Made by a program: the position numbers and the translations under genes
From: a virus
Length of the DNA: 64,000 nt
Virus record (IMG/VR): IMGVR_UViG_3300046660_000367
Span: 1 to 64,000 of that record
Strand: one strand, 5' to 3'
The notes under the pieces: model-generated
Databases searched by the model: none
What the model was told of the DNA's origin: nothing
What the model saw: the letters and a program-made list of their open reading frames with translations, nothing else
Shown here: positions 2,114-23,000 of the stretch, in pieces
How positions within the stretch are numbered: position 1 is the first letter of the stretch
Layout of the letters: each line of letters opens with the position of its first letter

Positions 2114-5056
2114 ATGGGCAACATGGAAGACGAATATAACCGCCTCAAGGGCGGCACCACGCCAGCGCGCCCGGTCCTCTTGGGCGGCAATGGCGCCCCG
2201 CAACCACCCACCGCGCCAGCCACCCAGCCGAGTAGCGCCTTGACGCGCCCGCCCATTCCTGTGCCGGACCCGCGTGCCAACTTGCCGCAGCCAGGCGCAG
2301 GCGTGGCCGACGCCATGCAGCAGCGCGGCACCGCGCCGGCCACGCCTGCAGCACCATCGAACCTGCGCGCCAGCTTGCCGCAGCCAGCCGCTGGCCTGGC
2401 CGATACGATACACGACCGCGCCATGGCCAGCGCGCAGTTTGATACGCCACACGCGGCGCAGCCAGCCCCCGACCTGCGCACGGCCCTGAACCAGCGCAAC
2501 CCGGTCGGCGAGCTGGCCAACGCGCAGTATGACCGCGCCGCGGCCGGGGCGCGCGCGCCAGCGCCCGCTGCCGCGCCTGTGTCCGCGCCGGACCCGCGTG
2601 CTGCCTTTGGCACCCAGCCAGGTCAGGCACTGTCGGAGGCGAGTGCCGCCCGCAGCGGGCTGCCCGCGCCGGCTGCGCCGCCCACGCCGGCAGCATCGGC
2701 AGTTTCGGACCTGCGTGCCAGCCTGCCCCAGCCAGCCGCTGGCCTGAGCGATGCGATGTACGACCGCGCCATGGCCGGCAAGTACAACCCATCGCCCGCG
2801 CCCGAGCCGGGCCTGTCGCCCACCAGGAACAGCATGCGCGCCGCTGCCGAGGCGGCGGCCAACCCGAACAGCGCGCGTGCCGCCGCCATGGCACCGCCGG
2901 GCGCCGACACCGCCGGCATGGCCAACAAGCTGCGCGGCTCAGTCGGACTGGGCGAGATGGGCGCAGCACCAGCGGGCGCAGCGCCGCCACCGGGGGCACC
3001 TGGCGCCATCCGCAGCGCCGCGCAGACGGCCTTCGGCAACGGCGAGCAATGGTCGCAGTTCGGCCAGAAGGCGCGCGCCGGTATCAACGCCGTCGCCAAC
3101 AATCCGGTGGTCAAGCAAGTCGTCAAGCGGGCGCCGCTGATCGGCGCAGTGGCCGGTGGCGCCGAAGCGGTGCATGGGCTGGCCAACAACGACATGGGCC
3201 AGGCCGGTTTGGGCGCGGCCGACGCTGCTGCCAGCCTCGCGCTGGCCTCGCCGGCAGCACCGGCAGCGGCCGTCTACCTGACCGGGCGCGGCGCCTGGGA
3301 GGGCGGCAAGATGCTGGGCAACGCCTTGCCTGAAACCGCGCGGGATTCCATCGGCAGCGGCATCAACAGCGTAGTGCGCGGCGCCGGCAAGCTGTTTGGC
3401 CAGGATTGGGGCGTTGACGACAGTGCCTTGCAGGCCCAGCGCGGCAGCATCGCCGCAGCAGCTACCGCCGCGAGCAAGCCGCCGGCAGCCAAGCCGACTG
3501 CCAAGCCTGCCGGCCCGGTGATGACCGAGGACCAAGCTGACCAGTACAGCCTGCAACAGCAGGCCCGCCAGTCGGCCAAGCCTGCCGCGCCCGCTGCGGC
3601 TCCGACCGGCCCCGTGCCAGGCGACCAGCGGCAACAGGCCATGCTGGATCGCTATTACGCCTTACACAAGGAATCGCGGGAAAGCCCAATTTCGGGCATC
3701 GATTATGGCGGATCGTACAACGGCACGCACATTTCCTACAAGGATGGCAGCGAGGCCGTCATCCCCCATGGCCAGCCACTGCCGTCCGAAGCGCAGCAAT
3801 ACCTTGACCGCTCCTATGAAGTAAGCAACCTGATGAACGGCAGCTGGCAAGCGCCTGCTCCGGCGCCTGGAACTGCCGCTACGCCAGCTGCCGCCGCGCC
3901 AGCCAATCCGAACTTGAGCGAGAACCAGCGCCGCATCCAGTCGAACGCGCAGGAAATGGGGTACGACCCGGCGCGCGCCATGATGATCAGCTCGATTGAA
4001 ACCGGCGGCAAGTTCAACCACGACGCGCAAAACCCGAACAGCAGCGCTTTTGGCCTGTTCCAGATGACCAAGGAAAACCGCGCCGCCTACCCAATGACGG
4101 CGGCGCAGTGGAAAGACCCGGCTGTGCAGGCGCGCGCTGGCATCGACTTTATGATGAAGACCGACGCCGGCCTGACCTCCAGCCTCGGGCGCGCACCGAC
4201 CCCTGCCGAGTCCTACATGGGCCACCTGCTGGGGGTGAAGGGCGCCACCGCGCTGCTCGGTGCCGACCCGAACGCCCCCATCGAGAAGGTGGTGGCCGGC
4301 TTCTCGCCCAAGAACGCCAAGGCCATCGTCAACAACAACGGCATGTCAGGCATGACCGCCGGCCAGGCCATCGGCAAGTGGACCGGCCTGGCGGCGTCGC
4401 ACATGCCCGGCGGCGGTGGCGCTGGCGGCAGCGCCTCGCCCATCGTCCAGCAGGCCCAGGTGGCGGCAGGCGGCATACCCGGCGGCGTCCCCCCCGAGCT
4501 GCGCGAGCAACCCATCTGGGAAATGCGGGGCATGCACAGCACGATACAGATGCCAGATGGTAGCGTGGTGTCCCCATCCATCTACAACGCGGCCATGGCC
4601 AGCGGCGACTTTTACGGCAAGAACAGCCCGTACACCAAATACCGTGACGCGCAGGTGCAGGGCGAAATCTACGGCGTGAACCCGCTCCAGGCGAAGCTGG
4701 ACGAGCAGGCGCTGCAAAACCAGGGTTCCGCGGCGGTGGCCGCCACCACCGGCCAGTACGGCGTGCAGGGCCATACCATCGCCGGCAAGGCGCATGTGGA
4801 TGCGGCCAAGCTCGCCGCCGAGAGCGGAAAACAGAGCTTCATCAACACCGGCGGCGGGGTCGATCCGACCACCTTTGCGCCGCTGCCGCAGCGCGTGTTC
4901 GACACGCAGACCAAGACCTTCGTCGATCCGCCGGCCAAGCCGAAGCCGTCGCAGGCAGCCGCCACCGCGCAGGCACAGGCGGCGATCAAGGCTGGCGGCA
5001 CCAAGGAAGCGGCAAATGCGATCCTGGCCAACTACGGCTACCCACCGATCAACTAG
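2114..5056 (+). CDS. Virion ejection/internal protein with lytic transglycosylase (SLT/lysozyme-like) domain
   Basis: AAGGGGG RBS before ATG 2114; SSIETGG (catalytic Glu) ... SSAFGLFQM ... LGRAPTPAESYMGHLLG at ~3990-4380; Pro/Ala-rich repeats at the N-terminus. Confidence 0.8.
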   Translation: MGNMEDEYNRLKGGTTPARPVLLGGNGAPQPPTAPATQPSSALTRPPIPVPDPRANLPQPGAGVADAMQQRGTAPATPAAPSNLRASLPQPAAGLADTIHDRAMASAQFDTPHAAQPAPDLRTALNQRNPVGELANAQYDRAAAGARAPAPAAAPVSAPDPRAAFGTQPGQALSEASAARSGLPAPAAPPTPAASAVSDLRASLPQPAAGLSDAMYDRAMAGKYNPSPAPEPGLSPTRNSMRAAAEAAANPNSARAAAMAPPGADTAGMANKLRGSVGLGEMGAAPAGAAPPPGAPGAIRSAAQTAFGNGEQWSQFGQKARAGINAVANNPVVKQVVKRAPLIGAVAGGAEAVHGLANNDMGQAGLGAADAAASLALASPAAPAAAVYLTGRGAWEGGKMLGNALPETARDSIGSGINSVVRGAGKLFGQDWGVDDSALQAQRGSIAAAATAASKPPAAKPTAKPAGPVMTEDQADQYSLQQQARQSAKPAAPAAAPTGPVPGDQRQQAMLDRYYALHKESRESPISGIDYGGSYNGTHISYKDGSEAVIPHGQPLPSEAQQYLDRSYEVSNLMNGSWQAPAPAPGTAATPAAAAPANPNLSENQRRIQSNAQEMGYDPARAMMISSIETGGKFNHDAQNPNSSAFGLFQMTKENRAAYPMTAAQWKDPAVQARAGIDFMMKTDAGLTSSLGRAPTPAESYMGHLLGVKGATALLGADPNAPIEKVVAGFSPKNAKAIVNNNGMSGMTAGQAIGKWTGLAASHMPGGGGAGGSASPIVQQAQVAAGGIPGGVPPELREQPIWEMRGMHSTIQMPDGSVVSPSIYNAAMASGDFYGKNSPYTKYRDAQVQGEIYGVNPLQAKLDEQALQNQGSAAVAATTGQYGVQGHTIAGKAHVDAAKLAAESGKQSFINTGGGVDPTTFAPLPQRVFDTQTKTFVDPPAKPKPSQAAATAQAQAAIKAGGTKEAANAILANYGYPPIN
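2271..2778 (+). repeat. Three intragenic repeats RA(N/S)LPQP(G/A)AG(V/L)(A/S)D plus degenerate copies
   Basis: Near-identical DNA at ~2361-2428 and ~2709-2776 (acctgcgYgccagcYtgccScagccagccgctggcctg...gaccgcgccatggcc); weaker copy from ~2271. Confidence 0.85.
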
Positions 5057-5068
5057 AGAGAGCACCCC

Positions 5069-8000
5069 ATGCCAAAGAACACTGACCTGGGCGACTTCGC
5101 CAGCATTGTGCCGGGCGCTGAACCGGACCTCGGCGAATTCGCCACGATCGTGCCGAAGAACCGGCCGTCCATCATCGGTTCGAGCATCGCAGACCTGGGC
5201 CGCTCGCTGAAAACCGGCGTCGAGCAGTTGCCCGGCATGGTCACCGGCCTGGCCGACATCGTGCCGGCGCTCGCCACCGGCACCCGGCCGTTTACCACGG
5301 CAGCCGACTGGCTCGGCGAGCAGACCGGCTTCCAGCCCGGAAAATGGGCCAAGGAGCAGCAGTTTTCCCCCGCTTACAGGCAGAACCAGCAAGAGATTCA
5401 GGATGCGTGGAAGGGTGTCAACGCGGTCTCCGACGACCCGCACGCGAGCAACGCGGACTACCTGCGCAAGCTGGCCGCCGACGCGCCTGGCATCGCCGCC
5501 GAATATGTGAAGCACCCGATGTATTCGCTCAACCAGGTGACCGAATCGCTGCCGTCGATGATCGCCGGCGGCGCCATCGGGCGCGCTGGGGTGGTCGCCG
5601 GGCGCGCGCTGCCGGTCGCGGCCGACGCGGCACTGGGGACGGCCGCCAAAGCTGCGGTGCCGGGCTATCTGGAACGCGCAGTCGGTAACAAGGTCGCCAG
5701 CGAGATCGCCGGCGGTGTCGGTGAAGGCACGGTGCAGGCCGGACAGGCCATGGACCAGTCGGAAGGCAGCGACCAGCGCAAGAATGCGATTGCGGCGCTC
5801 GGCTCGGGTGCGCTTGATGCGCTCATTGCTGGCGGCGCCGGGCATGTGGCGCACAAGCTCGGCTGGGAAACGGCCAATACCGCGATGGCGCAGGGATTCG
5901 ATCACAAGCTCGCCAGCGGCCTGTCGGCGGCCAAGCGCATCGCCGGCGGCGCCGCCTCGGAAGGACTGCTGCAGGAGGTGCCGCAGTCGATGCAGGAACA
6001 GGCCTGGCAGAACTACGCGGACGGCAAGCCGTTGATGCAGGGCGTGGTCCAGCAGGGCGTCGAAGGCGGGATTGCCGGCGCCGTGATGGGCGCCGGCGCC
6101 AACTTGCGCGGCGGCGAGGCGCCGCCACCACCCGGCGGCAGCACGGCCACGCCGCCGGCCAACAATCCGCCCGGTGGCAGCCAGGGCACCCCGCCAGCGA
6201 CCCCGCCCGGCCCGCTGACGCAAGCGGCCAGCCTGGTCCCCGGCGCGCGCCAGCAGTTCCCGTTCGGCTCCATTGACCTCGCGCAGAAGCAGGCCAACAG
6301 CTTCACCAGCGATTTCGGCATCCCGCATCAGGCGGTGCCGCACCCGAGCGTGCCGGGCAAGTTCGCCGCCGTGCCGGTGACCGTAGACGGCGCTGACGCC
6401 CTGTTCGTCAAGGAAGCCGAGCGGCAGGGGGTCGATCCGGCCGCCGCGCAGCTGGCCACCCATGGCGATGGTGGCGCCAGCCTGATGACCGACCTGCTGG
6501 CCCAGCACCCGGAGCTGACGGCGCAGCAGTGGAGCGACCCGGCCACGCGCGCGCAACTGGCCGCCGCCTACCTCAAACAAGACATCGACGCGCTGGGCGA
6601 GGCGCTGGGGCGTGCACCGACCCCGGCCGAAACCTACATCGGCCGCCAGCTCGGCACCACCACGGCAGCCGAACTGCTGAACGTGCCAGCGTCCGAGCGC
6701 GGCATGCCGGTCTCGTCCATCATCAGCGACCCCGCCGTCGAAGACCGCCTTGGCCTGACCGGCATGCCGGTCGGCTTTGTCATCGACCACTTGACGCAGC
6801 AGGCCGACACCACGCTGGCCACCTTGAAGGGGAACGGCAATGCCAACCTGGGAACCGAAGTACCTGCCGCTGGAGGCGCCACTACTGGATATGATGGTGG
6901 CGCAGCTGTGGGTGACGCAGCAGGAAGTGGAACTGTGGCTGGACGACCTGCTGCCGGAACCGGCGCTGTCGCAGCTGGAACACCGGCTGCACCTGGCGCG
7001 GCTGAAACTGGACCTGACGGTGCCGGTGCAGTAGCGCCGCGCGTGCAAGTCGGCCCGACCGAGGACGGCTTCCAGAATGGCAACGCCCAGCGCCACCGCG
7101 ACACCGCCGACGCGCTGGGCCTGACCGACACCATCGAGCGCCTGTTCGGCGACGGCCTGACGGTCAACCAGGTGGTCGGCCAGATTCAGGACAAGGCGCC
7201 CGGCGTGGTGCCGGCCGACCTGCCGAACCTGGTCAACGGCGTGCGCGGCACGCTCGGCATCCCGGCGCCGATCTCGCCCGAGGGCAAGGGCGCGTTTGAC
7301 GCCTGGCGCGCAGAGTACAAGGCGCGCGGGCAGCAGACCAAACAGCAGGCGGCACAGCAGCAGGACGACCTGTTCCCTGACGTGCCGGACTTCCCGGCCA
7401 CGCCGACCCCGACAGGCACCACCACGTCCGCAGAATCGGCAGCAGCCGATACCCCTGCAACCCCTGATACCCAAGCGCTGCCGGCCTGGCACGATTCGCC
7501 GTTCGCCCCGCGCATCCACGCCATGCTGGATAGCCTGAAAGAAGCCGGCGACACCGATATGGCGCGCTCGATCGAGGCCGGCGTCGAGATGGACGCCAAG
7601 CAGGGCCGCTTGAACGAACAGAACACCGCCTACCGCGAGGAAAAGGCGCGCATCGCCGTCAACACCAAGGCCGGCGAGGGCAAGCCGCCGGTGCCGGTCG
7701 CCATCGCGCCGGAAACCTACGACAGCCTGGCCGGGAAGATCAACACGATTCCCGCCTTGCCACGCGCCATCGGCGAGGCCGCGGTCGCGCGCTGGAACGA
7801 GATCGCGCCCAAGCTGGCCGCGCTCGGCTTCAAGGATGGCGAGGTCGATGCGCGCCACGCGCCCGAGGCACGCGAGCTGCAAAAGCAGCTCAAGGACATC
7901 AGCAGCGCCTTGAATGGCCTGGCGCCGCGCCGCTATCAGGTTGAGCGCGAACACAAGAACGTCAACCCGGATGCCATCGAGCGCGAGGAAAACTTCGCCA

Positions 8001-11000
8001 CCACCGTCCTTGGCATCGATACGCGCGCCCATCCAGGCGTCAATACTGACCACCGCATCACCCTCGGCCAGGGGGTGCAGACACCGACAGGCACCACTAC
8101 GCCCGCGAAAGAGCAAATCGACCTGTCGGACCTGATCGCGCAGTCCACGGCTGCCGGCACCAATGACGCCGGCGAGGCGCTGTTTGAGAACCAGCGCGGG
8201 ACCTTCCGCGTGCGTAAGGACCGCAAGGACCAGCCTGACGGCTACGCCGACTTCGGCGGCGACCTCGCTCCCACCGCCGCAGCACCGGCAGATGCGCGGC
8301 TGGAGTATGCGCGCACTGCCCTGCACGCGCACCTCGGCGCGGCTGGCGAGCTGTACCAGCTCGATGGTGTGCAGCATACCAAAGCGCGCCAGGATGTCAT
8401 GAGTGCGCTGATGGGCACGCCGGTAGAGAAGAAAGAGGCCAGCGTGGACGCGCTGCGCGCGGAACTGTATCGCCGCATCGGTATTGTCAAGGGCAACGCG
8501 CTGGCGAAAGAAATGGTGTTCCAGCAGTGGTACAAGGATGGCGGGCTGGTCAATGTGCCGCAGCAGGGCGGCCACAGCGAGCAGTACGACAACTACCGCA
8601 AGGCCATCGAGGCGGGCCAGGCCAGCCAGGGCATGGCCGAGCAGATCGCCGCCGATGAACGCCTGAATGACGGCGAGGACGGCGAGCTGCAGGACTTGAT
8701 CGAGGCACACGCCAAAGGTAAATCTGACGCCGCGCACGCCGCTGTCGTCAGTGATAACGGGCTGGGCAAACCGGCCAAGATCGATCATGCCCGCTTGACC
8801 TTTGCTGGTGCCAGTTCTGGCTTCACCGTCAGCGATGACCTCAAAGCGCGTGTGCAGCAAGCGTTGCGCGAGCGCCCTGACGCATACAAGACTGGCTTTT
8901 ACAGCCAGAACAATACCCGCTTGAAATTGCCGGCGACTAAACACACTACCAATGAAACGGGCGGTCAGTTCCAGGTGAAGGATGACGGCAGCGTGATGCT
9001 GTTGGGGGATGACGGCTACGGCTGGTATTCCACCATGAGTCAGAAGACCGTCACGCGCACCTTGACCGACTGGCTCAAGAATATGGGTGCGGAGTCGGGC
9101 AAACTCGACAACGGCACCGCGCCGGAACACGCCCGCAACGAGGGCAAGCCGCTTGACCCTAACAACAAGTTCGTGCCGTCTGACAACGGCCCGGTCAATG
9201 AGCTGGCGCCGGTCGATGCAGGCCTGGTGCCGCTGGACATGAGCGTGGACGAGTTTGCCTCGATCACCAACGAGTTCGCCGCGCTGTTCGCTGCGCCGGA
9301 CACCTACGTGCAAACCGAGAAGCGGGTTGACCCCGCCACGGTGCTGCATGCCCCCGAGCCGACACCAGCCGGCGAAGGCAAGTGGACCATGGCGCCGTCC
9401 AAGGCGACCCTGGCCGCGCTCAAGGAGGTCGAGAACGCCCCGGCGCAGCCGCTCATCACCATGGTGGAAGACACCGATGCGCGCAGCACCAAGGAGGGCA
9501 AGCGCCACTTCCGCATCACCGCCAACTACACCAACCGCTATGACGCCGCGCCGATGACTCAGGGCGCCGTGATGGTCGGCGAGCAAGGTGAGGACAATGT
9601 TTCGCGTGACTCGGGCCGGGTCGGCACCAAGCAGGGGCTGGCGGGCGGGGTTGCCGAAATGAAGGCGATGTGGCTGGAGCTGGAATCGGCCATCCTGGAC
9701 CAGGACAAGTGGATCGACCACGCCACCGAGCAGGCCGAAAACAGCAAACTCCGCCAGCAAAACAACCAGAAGATCATCCTGTCGCTGTTCGACTACACCG
9801 GCGAGTGGGGCCAGCCGTGGGCTGACGCCGGCTACAACGTCATTCCCATCGACATTCAGAACGGCATCGACGTGCACGACCTGAACGCCGAGTACCTGTA
9901 CGATGAAATGGGCGTCGAGGGCGACATTCACGGCATGCTCATTGCCGTCCCCTGCACCGACTTCGCGGTGGCCGGCGCCAAGCATTTCGCCGCCAAGGAC
10001 GCCGACGGCCGCACCGAGTCGAGCAAGGAACTGGTCAAGGCGTCCTTGTCGCTGGTCGAGGAATTGCGGCCGAAATTTTGGGCGCTGGAAAACCCGGTCA
10101 GCCGCATCGAAAGCCTGACCGGCCTGCCACCGGCGCGCATGAGTTTTAACCCAAACCACTTCGGCCATGCGTATACCAAGAAGACCATGCTGTGGGGGAA
10201 TTTCCAGACCGATCTGCCGCTCTCGCCGGTCGATCCGGTCCTGGGTAGCAAAATGCACCAGAAGTTCGGCGGCAGCAGCCAGGAAACCAAGAACGCCCGT
10301 TCGGAAACCCCGCGTGGTTTCGCCGCGGCCTTCTTCATGGCCAACAACTACGCCGACCTGACGCCCGAGCAGCGCCTGACCGGCGACTACCCGGAAGCGT
10401 CGGGCGCGATCGCCACCGCCTTGAAAGCCGGCGTACCAGAAGACCGCGTGCGCGAGCTGATGGAGCAGACTTACGAAAACTACGACTCCGAAGCGGCCCG
10501 CAACGCCCTGATCAAGGAAGTGGCCGCGCTGAAAGAGGGCACCGGCGACTATGCCGCTGACGAGGATGCGGACGAGGACGGGCCGAGCGCGCTATCGGCC
10601 AGTGTGCCGGGCACGGTCGATGCCCCGCTCAAGTTCCACAGCGGCATGAGCCGCCCCGGCGACTTCAGCAAGCTGTTTGCCGGGCACCGCAATGTCGGAA
10701 TCGAGGTCGGCGAGCTGTCGAAGGTGTCGGTCCCGAAGATCGCCGCCGCGATGGCCAACACCAATAGCCACCTGTTCGTCGATACCGGCGCCTTCCCGAT
10801 CTACCAGAGCAACAAGCTGGCGTTCCTCGATGCGCTGAAAAAGCAGGACTTCTCCGACTGGAAGAACGAGGAAATGCTGTCGTTTGACCAGATTCTGGAG
10901 CGCTACAAGTCGATCCAGGACGCGATCAACGAGGCCGACGACAGCGGGTTCGCCATCGAGCGCGCCTATTTCGTCATGCCTGACGTGGTCGGCCGCCAGG

Positions 11001-14000
11001 CTGAATCGCTGGCCCTGGTGGGCCAGTACCAGGGCGCCATCAACGGTTTCGGCGACCGCGCGATCCTGCCGCTGCAAGCGGGTGAGCTGACGCTGACCCA
11101 GGCCTACGAGAGCGCAATGATCTCGCTGCGGAAGGACCCGGACCATGATTTCGGCCCGATCGTCGGTATCCCGAGCAACAAGGAGGCCGCGCCCAACGAC
11201 CAGCTGACCGACCTGCTGAAAAAACACGGCGACCGCATCGCCGGTGTGCACGTCCTCGGCCTGTTCGCCGACACGATGCTGGCGCCGCGGCTGGACGCGA
11301 TCCGCGCCGCCGGCTTTGAGGGCCATGTCAGCGCCGACGCCAACCGGCTGCGCTCGCTGATGTACGGCACACGCACGCGCGGCGATGCCATGGATATACT
11401 GCTGGGCCAGTCGGCGCCGGAAAGCGGGGCCAAGAACGGCGGTGCCCCGGCGCCAGCCGACACCAAGCCTGGCCTGAAAAAGATGCAGGACGCCAAGGCC
11501 GAGAAGGACGCGGCCAAGGATGCGCCTGCCGAGGCGGGCCAGCACAGCGGCACCGTCGGCATCGACACGCTAATCGAGCGCGCCGAAGCACGCCTGGCGG
11601 AACAACGCGCGCTGCAAAACGCTGCCGTCGAAGACGGCAATGGCAACGAATGGGTGTACGACAAGAAAATTGCCGCCATCGAGGCCCAACTGGCCGATTA
11701 CCAGCGCGCACGCGCCGAGCTGCTGGCCGAAGACAAGCCGGGCCTGAAAAAGATGCAGGAGGCGAAGGCCGCCAAGGATGCCGCGACACTGCCCGAGACG
11801 GCTGCCGGGCAACAAGGTTATCGTTCGGCGCTGGACGGCTATCGCATGTCCCCACCGAACAACATCAGGACCAACATCGACAAGGCCGAATGGGAAAAGG
11901 GCTGGCTGGCTGGGGAAGCGCGCCGCGATGCCCTCATGGAAGGGGCGGAACCTGTCGTCGTGGGAGGGCGCCTTGCCTCGCCGACCTTGAATTTGCAGCA
12001 TGAACTGGTGTGGCGCGACGAGCGTAGCGGTAAGGATTATGTGTCAATGGATGCGGCCAGGGACGGACTGACCGCCGCCGATAAGCAAGATAAGGATTTT
12101 GAGGCAGCATTGCCAGCCAGCGAAGTCGTCGCCGTGTATCACACCAAAGGCGGCAAGCTGGCGATGCAGATCAAGCGCAGCATGGGCCGCGATGGCCAGC
12201 CGCGCTATGCCTACACCGGGCAATACGGCGCTGGCAGCGGCCATGGCGAAGCGGACATGCGCACCTTCGTCCGGCAGGCCAAGGCGGCGCATCCGGGCAT
12301 GAAACTGGTGTCGGGGCAGGAGTTTGGAGAGGCCGCGGTGCCGGCCGCCATTGACCTTGATGCGCTGCTGGACGACCAACTGAAAGCCGCCCTGTCGGAC
12401 CTGGGCGACGTGCTGGGCGATGTGTTCGGCGGCGTCAAGAAGATGACCGGGCCGCAGCGCACCGCTGGCGATCTGCTGCCGGCGCTGTCAAAGGTGGTCG
12501 AGCTACTGATTCGCAAGGGTCTGCGCTCGTTCCAGCAGGCCATCGGCACGGCCGCGCGCGCCATGCGCGGCAACGACAAGACCGCGCCGTTCGTGGACCA
12601 GATCACCCCGCGCCAGTGGAAGGCGGCCTATAACGCCGTGGCCGAATTGCATGAAGGCACCGACAGCGAGGACAGCGTCAACGCCCTCAGCGCCGACGAG
12701 GTGACGGCATTGACCGGCGTGGCGCCAGCTGCCTCGGCCGAGCGCAACGAACCAGCTGCGCCACCGGCCTCCCGCCGCAAAGCACCGGGACAGGCACGCC
12801 TGCGCCAAGACTATGGTGTCAAGCACATCGACGGCTACACCGCGACCGACGAATTCCCGCACGGCCCGCCGGGCGACATTCCGAGCGGCGGCGTCAAGGA
12901 AGCCTTCCGCAAGGACGCGATGGCGTACCTGAAGGACATCGCTGGCGTCCTGCTCGACCATGGCTTTACCAACTTCACCAACAGCAGCGGCAAGGCCATG
13001 AAGGCCTATTCGTGGAACCCAGGCGGCCCGGCCGTGGCGGGCGACGCCATGCTGTCAATGGTGCACGAAGGCGCCGGCAAGGGCATTTATGTCAACATTG
13101 CCGGCGACAGCATGGTCGGCAAGCCGACGGCGTCGGGCGTGAGCGTGATGATGCGCGTCACGACCAAAGAGAATCCGACCAGCAGCGGCATGAACCTGTG
13201 GCCGGGAGCCGATCTAAGCGGGCAGGAGCTGGCCGACAAGATCATCAAACTGGTCACTGGCGCACCTGCGCGCACCGAAAAGGGTGATAATCAAGACAAC
13301 GCGAAGGACGACAATGGAACTCGACCTGAAATTTCTAACCTGGGTACGCCGGGAATCGGCGAAGCTGGCGGAGAAGTGGCCGCTGGGGGGCGAGCGGGAA
13401 CGCGACCTGCTGGCCCATTGGGCGAGAAACCGGCCGCAGATGATGGCGCGGCTGGAGGCAATGAAGGTGGCGCCGCAGCTGGCCCACGTCCTGCTGGACC
13501 GGGAGTATCAGGCATTCCAGCAGAACCTGCGGGCGGGAATGGGGCCGACGGACGCAACGGAACAGGCGGAACAGGACTGGCTGATGCTGGAACCGGAGTC
13601 GGAGGACCAGCCGTTGGACCTGCCCGAGCCAATTACCACATCGGAGACCCCGAGCAGCTGATCGGCGGCACCCCGAAGGTCCGTTTCGCCAAGAACCGCG
13701 CCGCCATCGAGGCCTACCGCTCGATCACCGAGGAAGGGCGCGCGCCGGTCAAGGAAGACCTTGACGCGATGGCCGCCTACATCGGCTGGGGATCGTTCGG
13801 CCAGGAACTGTTCAAGGGAACCTGGGAGCGTGCGGCGCCGAAAGAGGGCTGGGCCAGCGAAGACGCCTGGCTGCGTGGCCACCTCGGGCAGCAGGAATGG
13901 GAAAGCGCCCAGCGCTCGATCATCAACGCCCACTACACCGACCCCGTCACCGTCAAGACCATGTGGGACATGGTGCGCGCGCTCGGCTTCACTGGCGGGC

Positions 14001-17000
14001 GCGTGCTGGAGCCGTCGATGGGGATTGGCAATTTCTTCGCCATGATGCCGCTCGACCTGGCCGAAAAGAGCGAGCTGACCGGCATCGAAATGGATACCCT
14101 GTCGGGCGGCATGGCCAAGGAGCTGTACCCGAACGCGAATATCCAGATAAAACCTTATCAGGATAGCAAGACGGTCGATGGCTTCTACGATCTGGTGATC
14201 GGCAACTGGCCGTTCGCCAAGGACGGCCCGAGCGACCGTCGCTACATGAAGCTCAATCCGTCCCTGCACGACTTCTTTTTCCTCAAGGCGCTTGACCAGA
14301 CCCGCGCCGGCGGGCTGGTGGTGGGCATCACCAGCGCCGGCACGATGGACAAGAAGGGCCGCGCCACGCGCATGGAAATTGCCAAGAAGGCCGAATTGGT
14401 GGCCGCCTTCCGCCTGCCCGCCGGGGCCTTCGAGAAGTATGCCGGCACCTTTGTGACGACCGACCTGATCGTGCTGCGCAAGCGCGCCGAGCCGGTCGCC
14501 GGCAGCGCATCATGGGTCGAGCTGGGCGAAACCCGCGTCCCGGCCGGCGAAACCATCGAAGTCAACAGCTATTTCCTGCAACACCCCGATCACGTCCTCG
14601 GCACCCTCAATTTTGGCCGTGGCCTGAACGGGCGCCCGGCAATGCTGGTCGAGCGCCCGGCCGACCTGATGGCGCGGCTGGCACAATTGCCCGGCAAGAT
14701 GCCGCCCGACACCTACTCGCCTGCGCAAGGGCGCAAGCAGGTCAGCTACCTGACCAACAACACCGCCGACCGCGAGGGCAGCGTGACACTGGCCGACGGC
14801 AAGCTGTACGTGGTGCGCGGCGAGCGGCTGATGCCGCTGGCCGACGTGACCAGCTACCAGGTCAAGAGCAAGATCGAGACCGCCGCGCGCGAGGCGCAGA
14901 TCGGCAAGCTGATCGCCATGCGCAATGCGTATGGCGCGCTGGTGACGGCCGAGCGCGCCGCCGACAGCAACACCGAGGCGCTGCGCAAGGACCTGCACCG
15001 CCAATACCTGGCGTTCGTCAAAGCCTACGGTTCGTTGGAAGCGTCCGACGGCATGCGCATCCTGCGCAACGTGAAAGACCCGTTCTACTCCGCGCTGGCG
15101 TCGCTGGAAATCGACGGCAAGCCGGCGCGCATCCTGAAAGAGGCGACGCTGCGCGGGCGCAAGAAGCTGGCCAACCCGAGCGTGCGTGACGCCTTCGTGA
15201 TGGCGCGCAACGAAAGCATGGACGTTGACCTGAGCACCATTGCCAAACTATCCAACAAGACCGAAGCGGAAGTGGCGAGCGAGCTGGAAGGGGCCGATGC
15301 GATCTTCAAGACCCCGGCCGGCAACTATGAAGTGGCCGATATCTACCTGTCGGGCAACGTGCGGCGCAAACTGCGCGAAGCGCAGGATGCACAGGCCAAC
15401 GCGCCGGCCGGCCAGGTCAGCGCCGATTTCGCGCGCAACATCGCCGCGCTGGAAAAGGTGCTGCCCAAGACCGTGCCGTACTTCAAGATCGAGGCCAAGC
15501 TGGGTGCGCCGTGGATCAAGGCCGAGCATTACCAGGGCTATGTCGCCCGCCTGCTGGGCCTCACGCGCGACGAGGACAAGGCGGCCGTCGAAGTGCGCAT
15601 GGTCAACGGCTCGTGGAAGGTCAAGTTTACCGACCACAGCCTGAACAACCGGCCGGAAGCGACGACGCAGTGGGGCACCTTCCACATGGCGGCGCGGCTC
15701 GACCGGATGCTGACGGCGGCGATGAACAACCGCAGCATCACCGTCAAGTACAAGGACGACGACGGCAACATGCAGGTGGACGAGGCGGCCACCAAGGAAG
15801 TGAGCGAAAAGCTGGTCAAGCTGCGCGAGGAATTCGGCAATTGGGTGTGGAAGGACGCCGAGCGCCGCGTCTGGCTCGAAGAAAACTACAACGAGGTGAT
15901 GAACGCCATCGCCACGCCCAACTTTGACGGCTCCTTCCTCGACTTCAACGGCATGACCCTGCGCCGGGGCGATGACCCGTTCTCGCTGCGCCAGCACCAG
16001 GTCGATGCCATCTGGCGCGGGCTGGTCAACGGCCGCGGCCTGTACGCCCACGAAGTCGGCACCGGCAAAACCTACACGATGGCCGGCCTGGCGGTCGAGT
16101 CGCGCCGCTACGGGCTGGCGAAAAAGCCGCTGATCTTCGCCCACAACGCCAACAGCGCGTCGGTGGCCAAGGAATTCAACGACATGTACCCGGCAGCGCG
16201 GGTGCTGTACCTCGACAACCTGGCGCCGGCCGACCTCGACGTGCGCATGCGCCAGATCGCCAACGACGATTGGGACGCGGTAGTGGTGCCCCATTCGCTC
16301 ATCAGCCGCTTCGCGCTGACTGCACAGACGCTCAATGAACTGGCCGCCGAAGACATCGCGGCGATGGAGCAGGAGGCGATGGACGCCGCCGAAGACGACA
16401 ACGTCCACTTGACGCTGGCGATGATGGACGACGAAAAGGAGATGAAGAAGGTGCGCAGCGCCACCGCCAAGGACCTGGTCAGGGCGCGCAACAAGATCAT
16501 CAAGAGCATGCAGGACATGGCTCTCAAGTCGTCGAAAGAAGACGCGGTGTCGTTCGAGGACCTGGGCGTGGACATGGTGATCGTGGACGAGGCCCACGAA
16601 TTCAAGAAGCCCCCGGTCGCCACCAAGATGAAGATGCGCGGCCTGAACACCGGCACCTCGAACATGTCGATCGCGCTGCGCTTCCTGACCGATTACGTCA
16701 AGCGCGAGAACAACGGGCGCGGCATCCACCTGTTTACCGGCACGCCGATCACCAATACCCTCACCGAGTTGTACAACATGATGCGCTACGTCATGGATGA
16801 CGTGATGGCGCGCGACGGCATCAAGGACTGGGACAGCTGGTTCAACACCTTCGCCGACTCGACCACCGACGTGGAACTGACGGCGGCCGGTGAGTACGAG
16901 GCGGTCACGCGCCTGGCCAGCTTCGTCAACACGGCCGAACTGCGCCGCATTTCCGGCGAGTTCATGGATATTGTCTTCGCCGACGACATGCCCGAATTCA

Positions 17001-20000
17001 AGCCGCGCCAGACCGCATCGGGCAAGATTTTGACCGACGAGCTGACCGACGTCGAGCGCGAGGAACTGCTGAACGGACGCAGCGAAAACCCGGTCGGCCG
17101 GCCCTACAAGCAAATCATCGTCGATGTGGCGCCGATGGGGCTTGAACAGAAGCAAATGCTGGACAACTTCAAGCGGCTGGCCAAGGAATTCAAGGAGGCC
17201 AGCAAGCAGCGGCGCCGCGAAATCGTGCAGAGCGGCCACCCGGCGAACCCGGTTCTGGTCGAAACCGGCGCGGCCAACGCCGGCATGGACCCGCGCCTGG
17301 TGGATATGAACGCCAAGGACGAGCCAAACAGCAAGGTCAACCGCGTTGCCCGCAATGTCGCCGCGCTGTACCACGAAGACGCGCGTGCCACCCAGGTGGT
17401 GTTCCTCGAACGTGGCTTTACCGACGAAGGCACCAAGACCAAGAGCAACGGCGACGGCACCAAGACCGTTACCAAGGTGCGCAAATTCAACCTGGTCAAG
17501 GACATGGTGGCCAAGATGGTCGCCGCCGGGGTCAAGGAAAGCGAAATCGCCGTGGTTGACGGCTCGGTCAGCAAGGAAAAGCGCAAGGAGATTGCTGACG
17601 CGATGAACAAGTCGCAAATCCGCGTCGTCATCGGTCTGACCAAGACGCTCGGGGTGGGCGTGAACATGCAGGAAAACCTGCGCGCGATGCACCACGTCGA
17701 TGCGCCGTGGATGCCGGGCGAGCTGGAACAGCGCAACGGGCGCGGCTGGCGTCAGGGCAACAAGTGGAACACCGTGCGTGAGTACCGCTACATCACCGAG
17801 CGGCTTGACGGGCGGCGCTGGCAGGTTCTGGCCGTGAAGGACCGTTTCATCAAGCTGTTCCTCAAGGCCGATGAAAACACCCGCATCATCGACGGTGATG
17901 CGGTCGAAATGGAAGAAGGCGATGGCGGCGATCTGGCCGCGACGCTGTCCGAGGCGGCGGGCGACCCGCGCGTGCTGGTGCGCGAAAAGCTCAAGGCCGA
18001 TATCGAGAAGCTGGAAAACCGCGAACGCCAGCATACCTATGCGCTCACTGACGCCGCCGAAATGATGCGCCGCCTGGCGCAGGCAAATGCGGGAATGACG
18101 GAGACGCTGCCGAAGTTGCAAGCCGACTCGGCGCAGTACGAGGCCGGTCGCGGCAACTTCAGCGCGACCATCGGGGGCGAGCAGTACACCGAGCGCGGCG
18201 CTGCCGATGAGGCGATTGACGCCATTATTGAGGGGCTGGACAAGAACGTGGGGCAGCGTCAGATCGGCACCATGCACGGCTTCAAGCTGACGCTCCATCG
18301 CGGCATTGGTGGCTTCTACGTCGATATCCGTGGCCAGCATCAATTTGAGGCATGGACGCCCAGCGTGTCGTCGATCGAGTCGGCGATGCGCAAGCTGGCC
18401 AAGACGGCTGCCGAGTATCAGCAGAAGATCGAAGACAACAAGGCCAGTATCGGGCGCATGGCCGAAATGCAGAAGGAACCGTTCGGGCAGGCGGCGCTGC
18501 TGGAGAAGAAGCGCAAGATGCTGGCCGACCTGATTGCCGACCTGGCGCGCAACCCGGAGCCGGCCCCGGCCTGGCTGCGCCATGGTGCGCCGGCCAATAC
18601 CGCGATCTACGTCAATGGCCAGCAGCGCGTGGTGGAAGGGCACAAGAGCGACAAGGACGGGTATTTCATCGTCACCGAAGAAGGCGACGTGCCTTACCTC
18701 GATGCCACCGACGCGGCTGGCATGCCGATCTATGATCCGGTCGATGGCGATGTGCGCGACGAACGGCCGCCGCTCGATCTGACCGGCACGCCGGCCGAGC
18801 CGGCACGCCTGCAACGGCGCGAAGACGACCGCAAACGGCGCGAAAGCGACCCGCTATTTGCGCGTGCCGAAAATGACGAAGCGGGGGCCGTCGCGCAGAA
18901 CGGCAAAACGCCGATCATCAGCGACACCGATTTCGCCGCCGTCATCGACCGCGTCAAGGCCGCCTTCGCCAAGCGCGCCGGTGGCGCCCTCACCGTCAGC
19001 ATCAAGCCAGTGCGGGGGATGGACGACCTGCCGCCGGCCTTGCAAGAGGCAGCGCGCCGCCAGCAGCTTGACCTTGGCAAAGGCGTGTATTTTGAGAACA
19101 CCGTATATGTGGTGCAGCAGGCCCATAGCACGGCCGAGGAAGTGGAAAAGACGATATTCCATGAATTATACGGCCATGCCGCCACCGCCACCCTGTTTGG
19201 CGACGAGTGGGTGGCCAAGCAGAATGCACTATTGAAAGCCATCGGCGGCGGCGCGGGCCTGTACCGGATCGCAGCCGCCAACCAGATCAACCTGCACGCC
19301 TACGCCGATGGCCTGGCAGCCGACACCACCCTGACCGACGCGCAGCGCAGCGCATCCATGATGGACGAGTTGCTGGCGCACATGGCCGGGAAGAAGACTG
19401 TGCTGCGCCAGAAGATCAACGAGTTCATCGGTGCGGTGCGCGCCTGGCTGCGCGCGCACGGTTTCGCCAAGCTGGCCGAGTACGGCAACACCGACCTGGC
19501 GCACCTGCTGGCGGAGGGGCGCCGGAGCCTGGCCGCGAAAGCCACCGGCAAGGCTGGCCCGGCGATGCCGGTGTTCGCCCGCGACCCCGACCATGCGCCG
19601 GTGTTCTACTCGACGCTGACGCGCCAGATCGACAAGACGGTGACGAAATCGGCCTCGCCGCTGCACTGGGCCGAGACCATCATGGGCACCTCGTTTGCGC
19701 AGCAAGGCGTCAAGCAGGATGAAATCCAGTGGTCCGGCGTGCTGGACTGGCTGGCGATGCAGCAAGAGGCCGGCGTGAAAAAGGTGGACAAGGCGCAGCT
19801 GCTCGACTACCTGGCCGAGAACGGCGTGCGCGTAAGCGAAACCATGCAGGGCGAACCGGCGCCGGCCAGCGAGGAAGGTTTGGCACAGCGCAAGGCCGTG
19901 TTCGACCAGTACCAGCCGCAGATCGACGCGCTGCGCCAGCGCGCCGAGGACTACAAGTCGCCCAGCCGGGAAATGGATGAGGCGCGCGACGAGTGGGCGG

Positions 20001-23000
20001 AATTGATTGACGAGCGCGACCGCGCCGCGAACGACGCCTACACCTTGCCGGCCGACGATACTTCGCCTGGCCAGTACGGTCAATACCAGCTGCCCGGTGG
20101 CGAAAACTACCGCGAGCTGCTGCTGACGCTGCCGCAGAAGGAGATCAGCACCGCCGACTTCCTGACCACGGACGCCAAAGGCGAGCCGTTTGGCGTGCAC
20201 GCAACCGAGGCGGAGGCGCGCAACGCGGCCCGTACCATTGGCGGCACCTACGAGGCTGGCGAGTCCATTTCGCGGGAGGCGGTCAAGTTCCAGTCGGCGC
20301 ACTGGACGGGGGTAGGCAACGTCCTCGCCCATGTGCGCTTCAACGACCGCATTGACGCCGATGGCCAGCGCGTGCTGTTCATCGAGGAGCTGCAGTCCGA
20401 TTGGCAAGCCGCCGGCAAGAGGCAGGGCTTTGGCGTGGCCGATGTGGAGAAGGAACGTGATCGCCTGCACGCGGCCGGCGATCCAGCCTGGGCGACAGTG
20501 TCCATCAGTAACGCCAGCAAGATCGCCCCGGCCCCGTTCGTCGGCAAGACCGAGGCCTGGCTGTCGCTCGCGGTCAAACGCATGATCTCCTACGCCGCGC
20601 AGAACGGCTACGACAAGGTGGCGTTCGTCAATGGCAAGCAGTCGGTGGAGCGCTACGACCTCTCCAAACAAGTTGCGCAGATTCGCTATGTCAAGCGCGC
20701 GGACGGCACGTATGACGTGTGGGCCGCCGACGAAAGCGGCCGCTCGCTGAACGACACCGTTGACAAGCAAGGACTGAAGCCTGAACAGGTCGAGGAATTC
20801 GTCGGCAAGGAAGTGGCCGAGAAGATCATCAACGGTGAGGGCCACAACGAGGATGGCGACATGGTGCTATCCGGCCTCGACCTGAAAGTCGGTGGCGAAG
20901 GCATGAAGACGTTCTACGACCGGATCGTGCCGAACGTGGTCAATGACGTGCTGAAAAAACTTGGCGGCGGCAAGCTGGGCACTGTCAACGTTGGCATCAA
21001 GGACGAGTCGCCCATCCCCCACTGGAAGACGAAGCAACCGGGCTTCGACCATTCGCGCATGATGATGCAGCCGCAGCCAGGCTTCGCCATCAGTGACGCC
21101 CTACGCGAGAAGGCGCAAGGCGGCTTGCCGCTGTTCAAGCGCGGAGAACAGCGTGCGCCGAACGGCAAAGCGTCGAACCTGCCCGCGCACCTGTGGCAGA
21201 AGGTGCGCACGCCGGAATTCAAGGCGTGGTTCGGCGACTGGGAAAAGGAGCCAGGCAAGGCATCGCAGGTGGTGGACGAGAACGGCGAGCCGCGCGTGGT
21301 CTATCACGGCACCAACGCCGACTTCACCGAGTTCGACAAGGCGAAAGTGCGCCTGCAAAGCCTGGGCGGCTTCTGGTTCGCCGAGCGCAACAACTATGTC
21401 GGCAACCTTCGGAGCGACCGGGAAGGCTTCAACCAGATGCCGGTGTTCCTGAATATCCGCCGCCCTGTTGACGGCAGCCGCTACGCGATGTTCCGCAACG
21501 GCGCCACCAGTAACGAGCAAGTGCAGCGGCAGTTCAAAATGAGCGGCAAGGACGGCGTACGCCTTGACAATGGCAGCGATTCGGTCTGGATCGCGCTGCA
21601 CCCCGAACAGATCAAGTCGGCCATCGGCAACAACGGCCAGTTCAACCAGGGCAACCCGAATATCCTGTTCTCGCGCAGCCCGGCCGATATCTCGCGCCAG
21701 GTTGGATCGACCATCAAGGCGCTGACTCTCACCCGCATCAAGAATAAGCTGATCGACTACGGGCGGATAGCATTGCAGTTCCTCGGCCGCCAGCAGCTGG
21801 TCGAAGTGTACGGCAACCTGTTCCCGCAAGGGACCAAGGACAGCCTGATGGTGCAGTACAACAAGCTGGCCATGCAGATGGACGCCGACAAGAACGACAC
21901 CAGCGCGCAGGCCGACACCATCGCCACCGATTGGGGCAAGCTGAAGGACCACCAGGCGCTGGCCGAACTGATGCACGACGCGACCCGCTTGCAGATCGAC
22001 CCGCGCAAGAAGTACGACCTGGGCGACATCAGGACCAACTACACCGATCTGCGCGCCCGCTACGAGGCGCTGTCGCCGGGTGCCAAGGCGATCTTCAACG
22101 AGGCGTCGGCAGCCTACGAGAAGCACTACGCCGCAGTGCGGGCGGCGGTGCACGACCGCATCGGCCGCGCCATGGTCGGCAACCCGAACCGCGCTTCGAT
22201 GCTGGCGCGCATGGATGCCGAGTTCTTCGGCAAGATCAAGGGCATCTACTTCCCGCTGGCGCGCTTCGGCGACTACATGGTGCAGGTGAACTGGCGCGGC
22301 GCCAATCCGAACCCAGCCATGGGACAGGCGCGCGAGGCGATCCACTTCGCCGAAACCATGAGCGAGGCGCAGGCCCTGCGCACCGAGCTGATGAAGGAAT
22401 ACCCGCCGGAAAAGGGCTATCAGGTGGCGCAGGTGACCCTGCGCGCCGAGTACAACGCGGCGCGCGATTCGGTTGGGCGCGGCTTCCTGCAGCAAATGTT
22501 CAACATGTTCAAGACAACCGGCATGGACCCATCCTTGCAGGATGCCATCAACCAGCTGTATCTGACCTCGCTGCCGGACCTGTCCTGGGCCAAGCATGGC
22601 ATCCACCGCAAGGGCACGCCCGGCTTCTCGCAGGATGCGCGCCGCGCCTTCGCCAACCACATGTTCCACGGTGCGCGCTACCTGGCCAAGCTGAACTATG
22701 CCGACCAGCTGGCGCAGGCGCTCGACGACATGCAGCATTACGTCAACGCGCACAACCAGGACGCCGGATACGATGCGGTCAAGGCGCAGCAGGTGGTTGA
22801 CGAAATGATCAAGCGGCACGACATTTACATGAACCCGAAGAACAATAAGCTGTCGAACTTGCTGACCTCGACCGGCTACGTGTTCTACCTGGGCCTGTCG
22901 CCGGCCTCGGCGGCGGTCAACCTGACGCAGACGGCGCTGGTGGCCTACCCGATCCTGGGCGGGCGCTACGGCTTCGGCAAGGCCGCCTCGGCGCTGCTGG

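Follow-up and report, generated by a model that had tools for sequence, protein, structure and literature searches.

Does the linker between two domains of a giant phage protein hide a second gene in another reading frame? The question is raised by positions 6840–7034 of the IMG/VR virus record IMGVR_UViG_3300046660_000367, a metagenome-assembled contig that represents a complete virus of 98,275 bp with direct terminal repeats. The window analyzed here is the first 64 kb of this record, and the stretch in question lies within a gene for a polyvalent protein. A first-pass annotation, made from the letters of the window, had described a ribosome-binding site, an ATG at position 6840, 64 codons of near-ideal usage in the +1 frame, a codon bias that returns to the main frame after the TAG, and a main frame that reads as a Gly/Ala/Thr spacer. 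All of these elements are present in the sequence, and they are arranged as follows.

5069–24328, plus strand: host gene for the polyvalent protein, 6419 codons, taken from the list of open reading frames (ORFs) and its translation; the largest gene of the window.
6825–6827, plus strand: TGA stop codon in the +1 frame, four codons ahead of ATG 6840; present in the related locus L037 too.
6826–6833, plus strand: Shine-Dalgarno-like sequence GAAGGGGA, whose AAGGGG core ends 7 nt before ATG 6840.
6836–7036, plus strand: host-frame reading as a Gly/Ala/Thr/Pro-rich interdomain linker, residues about 589–656.
6840–7034, plus strand: embedded gene P0001, 64 codons plus TAG (7032–7034), in the +1 frame of the host gene.

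We consider, with a probability of roughly 0.85, that 6840–7034 is dual-coding, that is, that it specifies the linker of the polyvalent protein and also a complete +1 gene for an acidic 64-residue protein of three helices. In the host frame, these 195 bases would provide a flexible Gly/Ala/Thr/Pro linker between two conserved domains. Read one base further, the same bases would yield the acidic three-helix protein, with its own initiation at ATG 6840 on a long late mRNA.

The embedded ORF is located wholly within 5069–24328, on the same strand but in another frame and with its own start and stop, and the same applies to the related loci L037 and L038. ORF length alone is not significant, because a frame rich in GNN codons (Gly/Ala) automatically gives stop-free NNG codons in the +1 frame. 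The anomaly that needs an explanation is the A or T at host-frame third positions, not the open +1 frame. Over the 65 host-frame codons at 6840–7034, the G+C fraction at third codon positions (GC3) is 0.31. No other window of this size in the 19-kb gene is as low (mean 0.84), and the value lies 14 standard deviations under the expectation of 0.87 ± 0.04 obtained by keeping the same residues and resampling codons from the usage of the gene. For example, host-frame glycine in the overlap is encoded by GGA in 9 of 17 cases, and alanine by GCT in 8 of 20, compared with 4% gene-wide for either codon. The overlap DNA was also scored with an index resembling the codon adaptation index: the +1 ORF reached 0.72, and the host frame reached 0.18; in ordinary windows, the host frame scored 0.70 ± 0.09 (minimum 0.41) and the +1 frame 0.24 (maximum 0.51). 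The shift in codon bias described in the first-pass annotation is real, extreme and far beyond chance. Low GC3 of this kind was found in one other stretch of the giant gene (13284–13661). Expansion of a tandem or direct repeat was considered as the origin of the odd codons and rejected, since there is no tandem repeat and merely a 12-nt chance repeat. The minus-strand frames over the overlap were likewise rejected; they are Arg/Gln-rich or Ala/Pro-rich shadows and are not protein-like.

Such a bias might also arise with no second gene at all, if the linker used rare A/T-ending codons to slow translation between domains or to keep its local GC content from becoming extreme; the +1 ORF would then be a by-product, since GNN-rich sequence leaves that frame open almost by default. 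Along the giant genes, the G+C content at the first two codon positions is negatively correlated with GC3 (r from –0.17 to –0.46). Moreover, a PANPAN-repeat linker in the giant ORF of the related genome G004 (locus L041, residues 306–389) has a lowered GC3 of 0.63 without a +1 ORF; it serves as a negative control, showing that not every linker hides a gene. We nevertheless consider this explanation very unlikely, and it is already contradicted by three observations described below: the homologues of the small protein, the retention of T and A in the overlap, and the GC3 of two relatives that lack the ORF.

A HMMER search of 1.84 billion proteins identified seven true homologues of P0001, 64–71 residues long and 38–73% identical over the full length, and a profile search added an eighth. 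In the alignment of this family, gaps occur solely as N-terminal extensions, all members end in P-x-Q, and the residues M1, W4, L11, W24, E29, L52, P62 and Q64 are invariant. All 64-residue members begin at the same methionine, and the two longer members have Met-initiated extensions. The database homologues are single-member clusters from metagenome contigs, most of which are short; in a collection of 15 billion proteins, the family amounts to nine single-member clusters. A degenerate DNA pattern based on the invariant residues further detected two ORF copies in IMG/VR, at loci L037 (genome G004) and L038 (genome G005), giving eleven family members in all, in which length, start, stop and hydrophobic pattern are conserved. 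A linker selected for rare codons would not conserve start, stop and length down to 38% identity.

The two IMG/VR copies also reveal the position of the gene. Both consist of 64 codons in the +1 frame of giant ORFs (7153 and >4219 codons), and both start 576–585 codons into the giant ORF, between the same two conserved domains as in the window. Their embedded ORFs are about 42–45% identical to that of the window, each has a Shine-Dalgarno-like site at the same place (GAAGGAG in L037 and CAAGGAG in L038), and their G+C fractions at the three ORF codon positions are about 0.71, 0.32 and 0.83. Homologues with a conserved +1 ORF therefore exist, and they match the window in site, frame and length. 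This layout bears on the concern that, in a metagenome-assembled virus contig, assembly or sequencing indels could have created a false frame relation. We regard that possibility as hardly credible, because the layout recurs in three independently assembled contigs at 42–45% ORF identity and the host frame is in phase in the flanking domains on both sides in five of five genomes.

A +1 ribosomal frameshift near 6830–6840 would likewise be compatible with the conserved +1 relation and site; it would produce a truncated N-terminal product of ~590 residues ending in a 64-residue domain at TAG 7032. Phages use programmed frameshifts to obtain two products per gene, as in tail assembly chaperones and T7 gene 10. 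However, in both the window and L037 a +1 stop stands four codons ahead of the ATG and leaves almost no room for a shift site, the shared start methionine and the Met-initiated extensions of the longer members do not fit a fused domain, AAGGAG or AAGGGG stands at Shine-Dalgarno distance, and no slippery motif was noticed in the sequence. A frameshift at this site is thus improbable.

Constraint on the small frame was assessed through A/T retention; true synonymous sites between the window and L037/L038 are saturated. Within the overlap, A or T at host third positions, which are the second positions of the ORF, was kept at 31 of 44 sites in L037 and at 28 of 44 in L038. Outside the overlap, A or T at four-fold sites of identical residues was kept at only 2 of 18 and 2 of 15 sites, respectively (Fisher tests, P = 4e-5 and 9e-4). 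The identity of the base was also conserved, with 17 sites TT, 14 AA and 4 mixed (31 of 35 unchanged). Since the choice of T or A decides between hydrophobic and polar residues in the +1 frame and is meaningless for host Gly/Ala/Thr/Pro codons, a mere rare-codon or low-GC linker, to which this choice would be irrelevant, is ruled out.

For the host frame, we held the ORF protein fixed and redrew synonymous codons from the usage of each of three genomes. The host frame was open in 51–88% of the trials and then contained 76–79% small or polar residues, compared with an observed fraction of 0.88–0.89 (P ≤ 0.002 in each of the three genomes), and G-ending (NNG) codons were in excess in the actual ORF (P = 0.004–0.012). 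Both frames are therefore constrained, and the coding is truly dual. These comparisons show that selection keeps both frames and that the small frame bears the stronger, protein-like constraint. Purifying selection on the embedded frame is seen in its conserved members, in the A/T retention and in the relaxation of GC3 where the ORF was lost. The ORF at 6840–7034 is a genuine conserved gene that overlaps the linker of a polyvalent protein.

Two relatives do not carry the ORF. Over this part of the protein, the genomes G001 and G002 (loci L002 and L003) are 78% identical to the window; their linker lacks 28 codons (a deletion whose length is a multiple of three), the TAG is gone, and the +1 frame reads as an Arg/Pro/Ala-rich peptide. 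Remnants of the gene persist in their +1 frame (M.TW...LPL at the start and LARL.L....P.Q near the end), and a hidden Markov model (HMM) of the ORF family matched the remnant in G001 (E = 0.009). In the complete genome G002, there was no match to the family HMM and no copy elsewhere in the genome. From these two genomes alone, the ORF had been read as not conserved; this reading was overturned by the database homologues and by L037 and L038. The deepest split among the five genomes has ORF-bearing members on either side, so that a single loss on the branch leading to G001 and G002 is the simplest history. Across the 39 linker codons that are shared, GC3 of the host frame is 0.64 in G001 and G002, compared with 0.36–0.41 in the genomes bearing the ORF. 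Third positions in G001 and G002 are drifting back to G or C, which is the relaxation expected once the +1 constraint is lifted. The rare-codon explanation fails here as well: these relatives kept the linker and lost its low GC3 after the ORF broke.

The loss is also informative about function. In G001 and G002 the flanking domains persist at ~85% identity although the ORF is gone; the gene is consequently dispensable. The first-pass annotation had proposed that such genes might act as immunity factors or chaperones for adjacent domains. Loss of the ORF with those domains kept argues against an obligatory role of this type, which has become less likely, and it argues that any link between the small protein and the giant protein is not obligatory.

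The fold of P0001 was predicted by AlphaFold2 from a 10-sequence alignment, with a predicted local distance difference test score (pLDDT) of 83.5 and three helices at residues 13–21, 27–34 and 42–54; a linker shaped by rare codons would not give so confident a fold. The protein is acidic (isoelectric point, pI, about 4.5), as is the family (pI 4.1–4.6 in 9 of 10 members and 5.2 in one). Inspection by eye revealed no signal peptide or membrane segment, and a search of the ESM Atlas gave no usable match. In VIA-align the best Z score was 3.7, with generic three-helix or helix-turn-helix-like bundles near Z 3 and nothing above background. Our best guess is that the product is a putative trans-acting accessory that binds protein. 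It would be dispensable, and it probably binds the polyvalent protein or a host target, not DNA.

With regard to expression, no internal sigma-70-like promoter was found near the embedded gene, which would therefore be read from the mRNA of the giant gene. The RNA around the start (window 6800–6880) has a folding energy of –20 kcal/mol (z = +1.95) and is less folded than shuffled controls; for the homologous ORF-less stretch of G001 (L010, 14770–14850, minus strand), the corresponding values are –36 kcal/mol and z = –1.55. From the AAGGGG or AAGGAG located 7–8 nt before the ATG, the upstream stop in the same frame and the weakly folded RNA, we infer independent initiation; these signals predict that ATG 6840 most likely serves as a separate start for the small protein. 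A terminator-like hairpin (8 pairs, with a T-poor tail) occurs at 6755–6774, ~65 nt upstream of ATG 6840; the number of such hairpins is not above that in shuffled sequences.

Which of the two frames is the older? According to the criterion of Pavesi, the frame with codon usage nearer to that of the genome is ancestral (PMC3744397). In three genomes, the codon-usage correlation (rs) was 0.43–0.55 for the ORF and 0.15–0.23 for the host frame in the overlap (Hotelling tests, P = 0.019–0.054), which predicts that the small ORF came first and that the linker reading arose later. In addition, a disordered, low-complexity product usually belongs to the younger frame (PMC3494269), and the disordered, low-complexity product here is that of the host frame. 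Normal genes of these genomes, when read in that frame, are stop-poor and give a linker-like peptide with about 78% small or polar residues. Taken together, the frame-age test, the disordered host product and the linker-like out-of-frame reading favor read-through of an older small gene. The first-pass annotation had suggested that polyvalent proteins grow by out-of-frame read-through of small neighboring genes. The giant gene may have grown through a pre-existing small gene, which would be consistent with the codon-usage age test; no free-standing copy was seen.

By this route, the upstream gene would lose its stop and enter a small gene, whose G/C-rich third positions would then be read as first positions. 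In a GC-rich genome, such a reading would automatically result in a stop-poor Gly/Ala/Pro-rich spacer, which would then join the next gene in phase. The giant gene may thus have absorbed an older small gene as a linker, and the absorbed gene would stay expressed from its own ribosome-binding site, for example as an anti-defence adaptor or as a partner of the injected protein. That the absorption of entire small genes can give rise to linkers of polyvalent proteins, as a general route of gene fusion, is a tentative proposal, to which we give somewhat less than even odds.

Classical overprinting would reverse this order, the small ORF having been born de novo in a pre-existing Gly/Ala linker with no absorption of an older gene. 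Every copy with visible context is embedded, no stand-alone copy turned up in the searched collections, and the family has very few members, all within this phage group. Furthermore, the codon usage of a de novo gene can come to resemble that of the genome with age, and such a gene can prevail over the ancestral frame (PMC3494269). We nevertheless consider de novo birth unlikely. In all three genomes, the ORF has the codon usage nearer to that of the genome, no part of the giant gene has poorer usage than the host frame here, the product with the usual hallmark of a younger frame is the host-frame one, and the conversion of a GC3-rich linker, with an Arg/Pro/Ala +1 reading as in G001 and G002, into a folded protein would need dozens of coordinated third-position changes.

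Several points weigh against the preferred reading of a dual-coding, absorbed gene. Pairwise BLOSUM scores and identities per frame do not discriminate, as the unused +2 frame scores alike. DNA context is seen for three ORF copies (the window, L037 and L038), and a stand-alone P0001 gene was not seen in cultured phages and plasmids or in pattern scans of IMG/VR, GTDB and JGI: no true match to family members was obtained by tblastn in either of the first two, in JGI metagenomes and GTDB genomes the pattern matched by chance only, and a profile-derived scan of IMG/VR (alignment A3) found nothing. P0001 has no sequence match in Pfam, NCBIfam, PHROGs or PDB sequences and no functional lead from them, and a Foldseek comparison of its fold with PDB and BFVD gave best E-values above 3. 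The Shine-Dalgarno-like site and the ATG lie within a conserved host-frame motif, LK[GE].GN[AE], and are also kept in the relatives without the ORF; their conservation is therefore not independent evidence for initiation. Finally, the frame-age test is marginal in each genome, and it may mislead if the younger frame is under stronger selection (PMC3494269).

The identity of the host gene follows from its domains. ORF 5069–24328 matches SNF2-rel_dom, Helicase_C, ART-PolyVal (an ADP-ribosyltransferase; E = 7e-20) and LPD39 (E = 3e-32) in Pfam, and these domains of the 6419-residue protein map to 16730–17758 and 21275–22255 of the window; residues 1–3000 have no Pfam match at E ≤ 1e-5. Its N-terminus resembles a DarB-like antirestriction protein of Pseudoalteromonas phage Y7 (tblastn). 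A giant multidomain phage protein with polyvalent-specific Pfam domains and a DarB-like N-terminus qualifies as a polyvalent protein as defined by Iyer et al. 2017 (PMC5512222). The linker that contains P0001 is flanked by two domains.

6257–6835, plus strand: domain upstream of the linker (FPFG...TLATLKG), weakly transglycosylase-like; conserved in five genomes.
7037–7321, plus strand: domain downstream of the linker (PRVQVGP...NAQRHRD...AWRAEYK); conserved across relatives.

The upstream domain had been called a degenerate transglycosylase domain. A conserved domain is indeed present, but its transglycosylase identity is tentative: a five-sequence profile matched the lytic transglycosylase phiKZ gp144 (3bkh) weakly, over the C-terminal 55 residues (E = 0.016–0.017), and the domain has no Pfam match. 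The module around the ORF (6257–7321) is 85% identical to G001 and G002 and 62–63% identical to G004 and G005, and divergence resumes directly after ...PDFPA. The giant proteins are mosaic, the first 360 residues (5069–6150) grouping with G003 (L004) with a support of 100/100. As a result, a tree of the N-terminal domain is unusable for polarizing gain and loss of the ORF.

The first-pass annotation had described the design as a repeated one, and it does occur a second time in the same giant gene.

13314–13661, plus strand: second embedded gene P0003, 115 codons, +1 frame, directly ahead of an N6-methyltransferase-helicase module.

A +1 ORF at this site is kept, directly before the N6-methyltransferase start, in G001, G002, G004, L047 and L048 (49–66% GC), of which the L047 and L048 contigs have only 49–53% GC. 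The copies in G001 and G002 have AAGGAGG before the ATG, and 7 of the 10 core substitutions between them leave the +1 protein unchanged and alter the host protein. The protein has a strongly conserved motif (TDA.EQAE.DWLM.EPE) and database homologues of its own, and its codon-usage correlation is higher than that of the host frame (rs 0.68 vs 0.34, P = 0.003). No similarity was found between P0001 and P0003. An assignment of P0003 to TnpV (PF14198) was rejected, as none of nine family members matched at E ≤ 0.1 and the likeness is by eye only. Separately, the giant ORF of L038 (G005) contains low-GC3 stretches with ATG-started +1 ORFs at residues ~2288–2397 and 4094–4209, which are possible further hidden genes.

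Genes nested in this manner have precedents. In phage lambda, Rz1 is a complete gene inside Rz, in the +1 frame of the same strand, and an origin by read-through after loss of an upstream stop has been proposed for such an arrangement (PMC6139136). Like Rz1, P0001 has a start of its own and is contained entirely within a larger phage gene. However, the lipoprotein Rz1 binds the product of Rz, and the two are lysis proteins of similar size, whereas the host here is a 6419-residue polyvalent protein of the injected type, the overlapped part is a disordered interdomain linker, and the 64-residue product is cytoplasmic-looking, acidic and helical, with no relation to Rz1 in sequence or fold. In Bacillus subtilis, comS is a very small regulatory gene located out of frame in the giant nonribosomal peptide synthetase gene srfAB; it is expressed from the srfAB transcript, overlaps an enzymatic domain and functions in the competence switch. 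A tiny gene hidden out of frame in a giant multidomain gene is common to both cases, but the overlap here is with a linker and there is no homology.

The pair at 6840–7034 also resembles the viral overprinted pairs described by Rancurel, Sabath and Pavesi, in that both frames are selected, an ordered product is paired with a disordered one, and the frames can be dated by codon usage (PMC3494269, PMC3744397). In classical pairs, a short disordered newcomer lies in a large ordered gene; here, the roles look inverted, as the short protein is ordered and appears to be the older one, the newcomer being the linker reading of the giant gene. With the known polyvalent proteins, the host shares the ART-PolyVal, LPD39, SNF2 helicase and methyltransferase modules and the low-complexity linkers. 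Iyer et al. treat such linkers as mere spacers, with no mention of overlapping or embedded genes or of frameshifts (PMC5512222). The first-pass annotation knew of no description of this layout, and we found no published account of genes hidden in polyvalent-protein linkers in the literature searched. Same-strand embedded phage genes are already known; their location in a polyvalent-protein linker is new as far as that literature extends.

The comparative evidence indicates that this interdomain stretch of an anti-defence mega-protein does more than separate domains. Because gene finders forbid long same-strand overlaps, such genes are systematically missing from phage annotation. They can be sought by a simple combination of phase-shifted GC3 and an internal Shine-Dalgarno sequence with ATG in linkers, which picked exactly two embedded genes in the 19-kb gene, and the small acidic proteins that they encode are candidates for phage accessory or counter-defence factors. 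The locus offers a testable picture in which multidomain giants are stitched together by out-of-frame read-through of small genes. If the absorption route is true, there would be a layer of unannotated small proteins hidden in the polyvalent genes of phages and plasmids.

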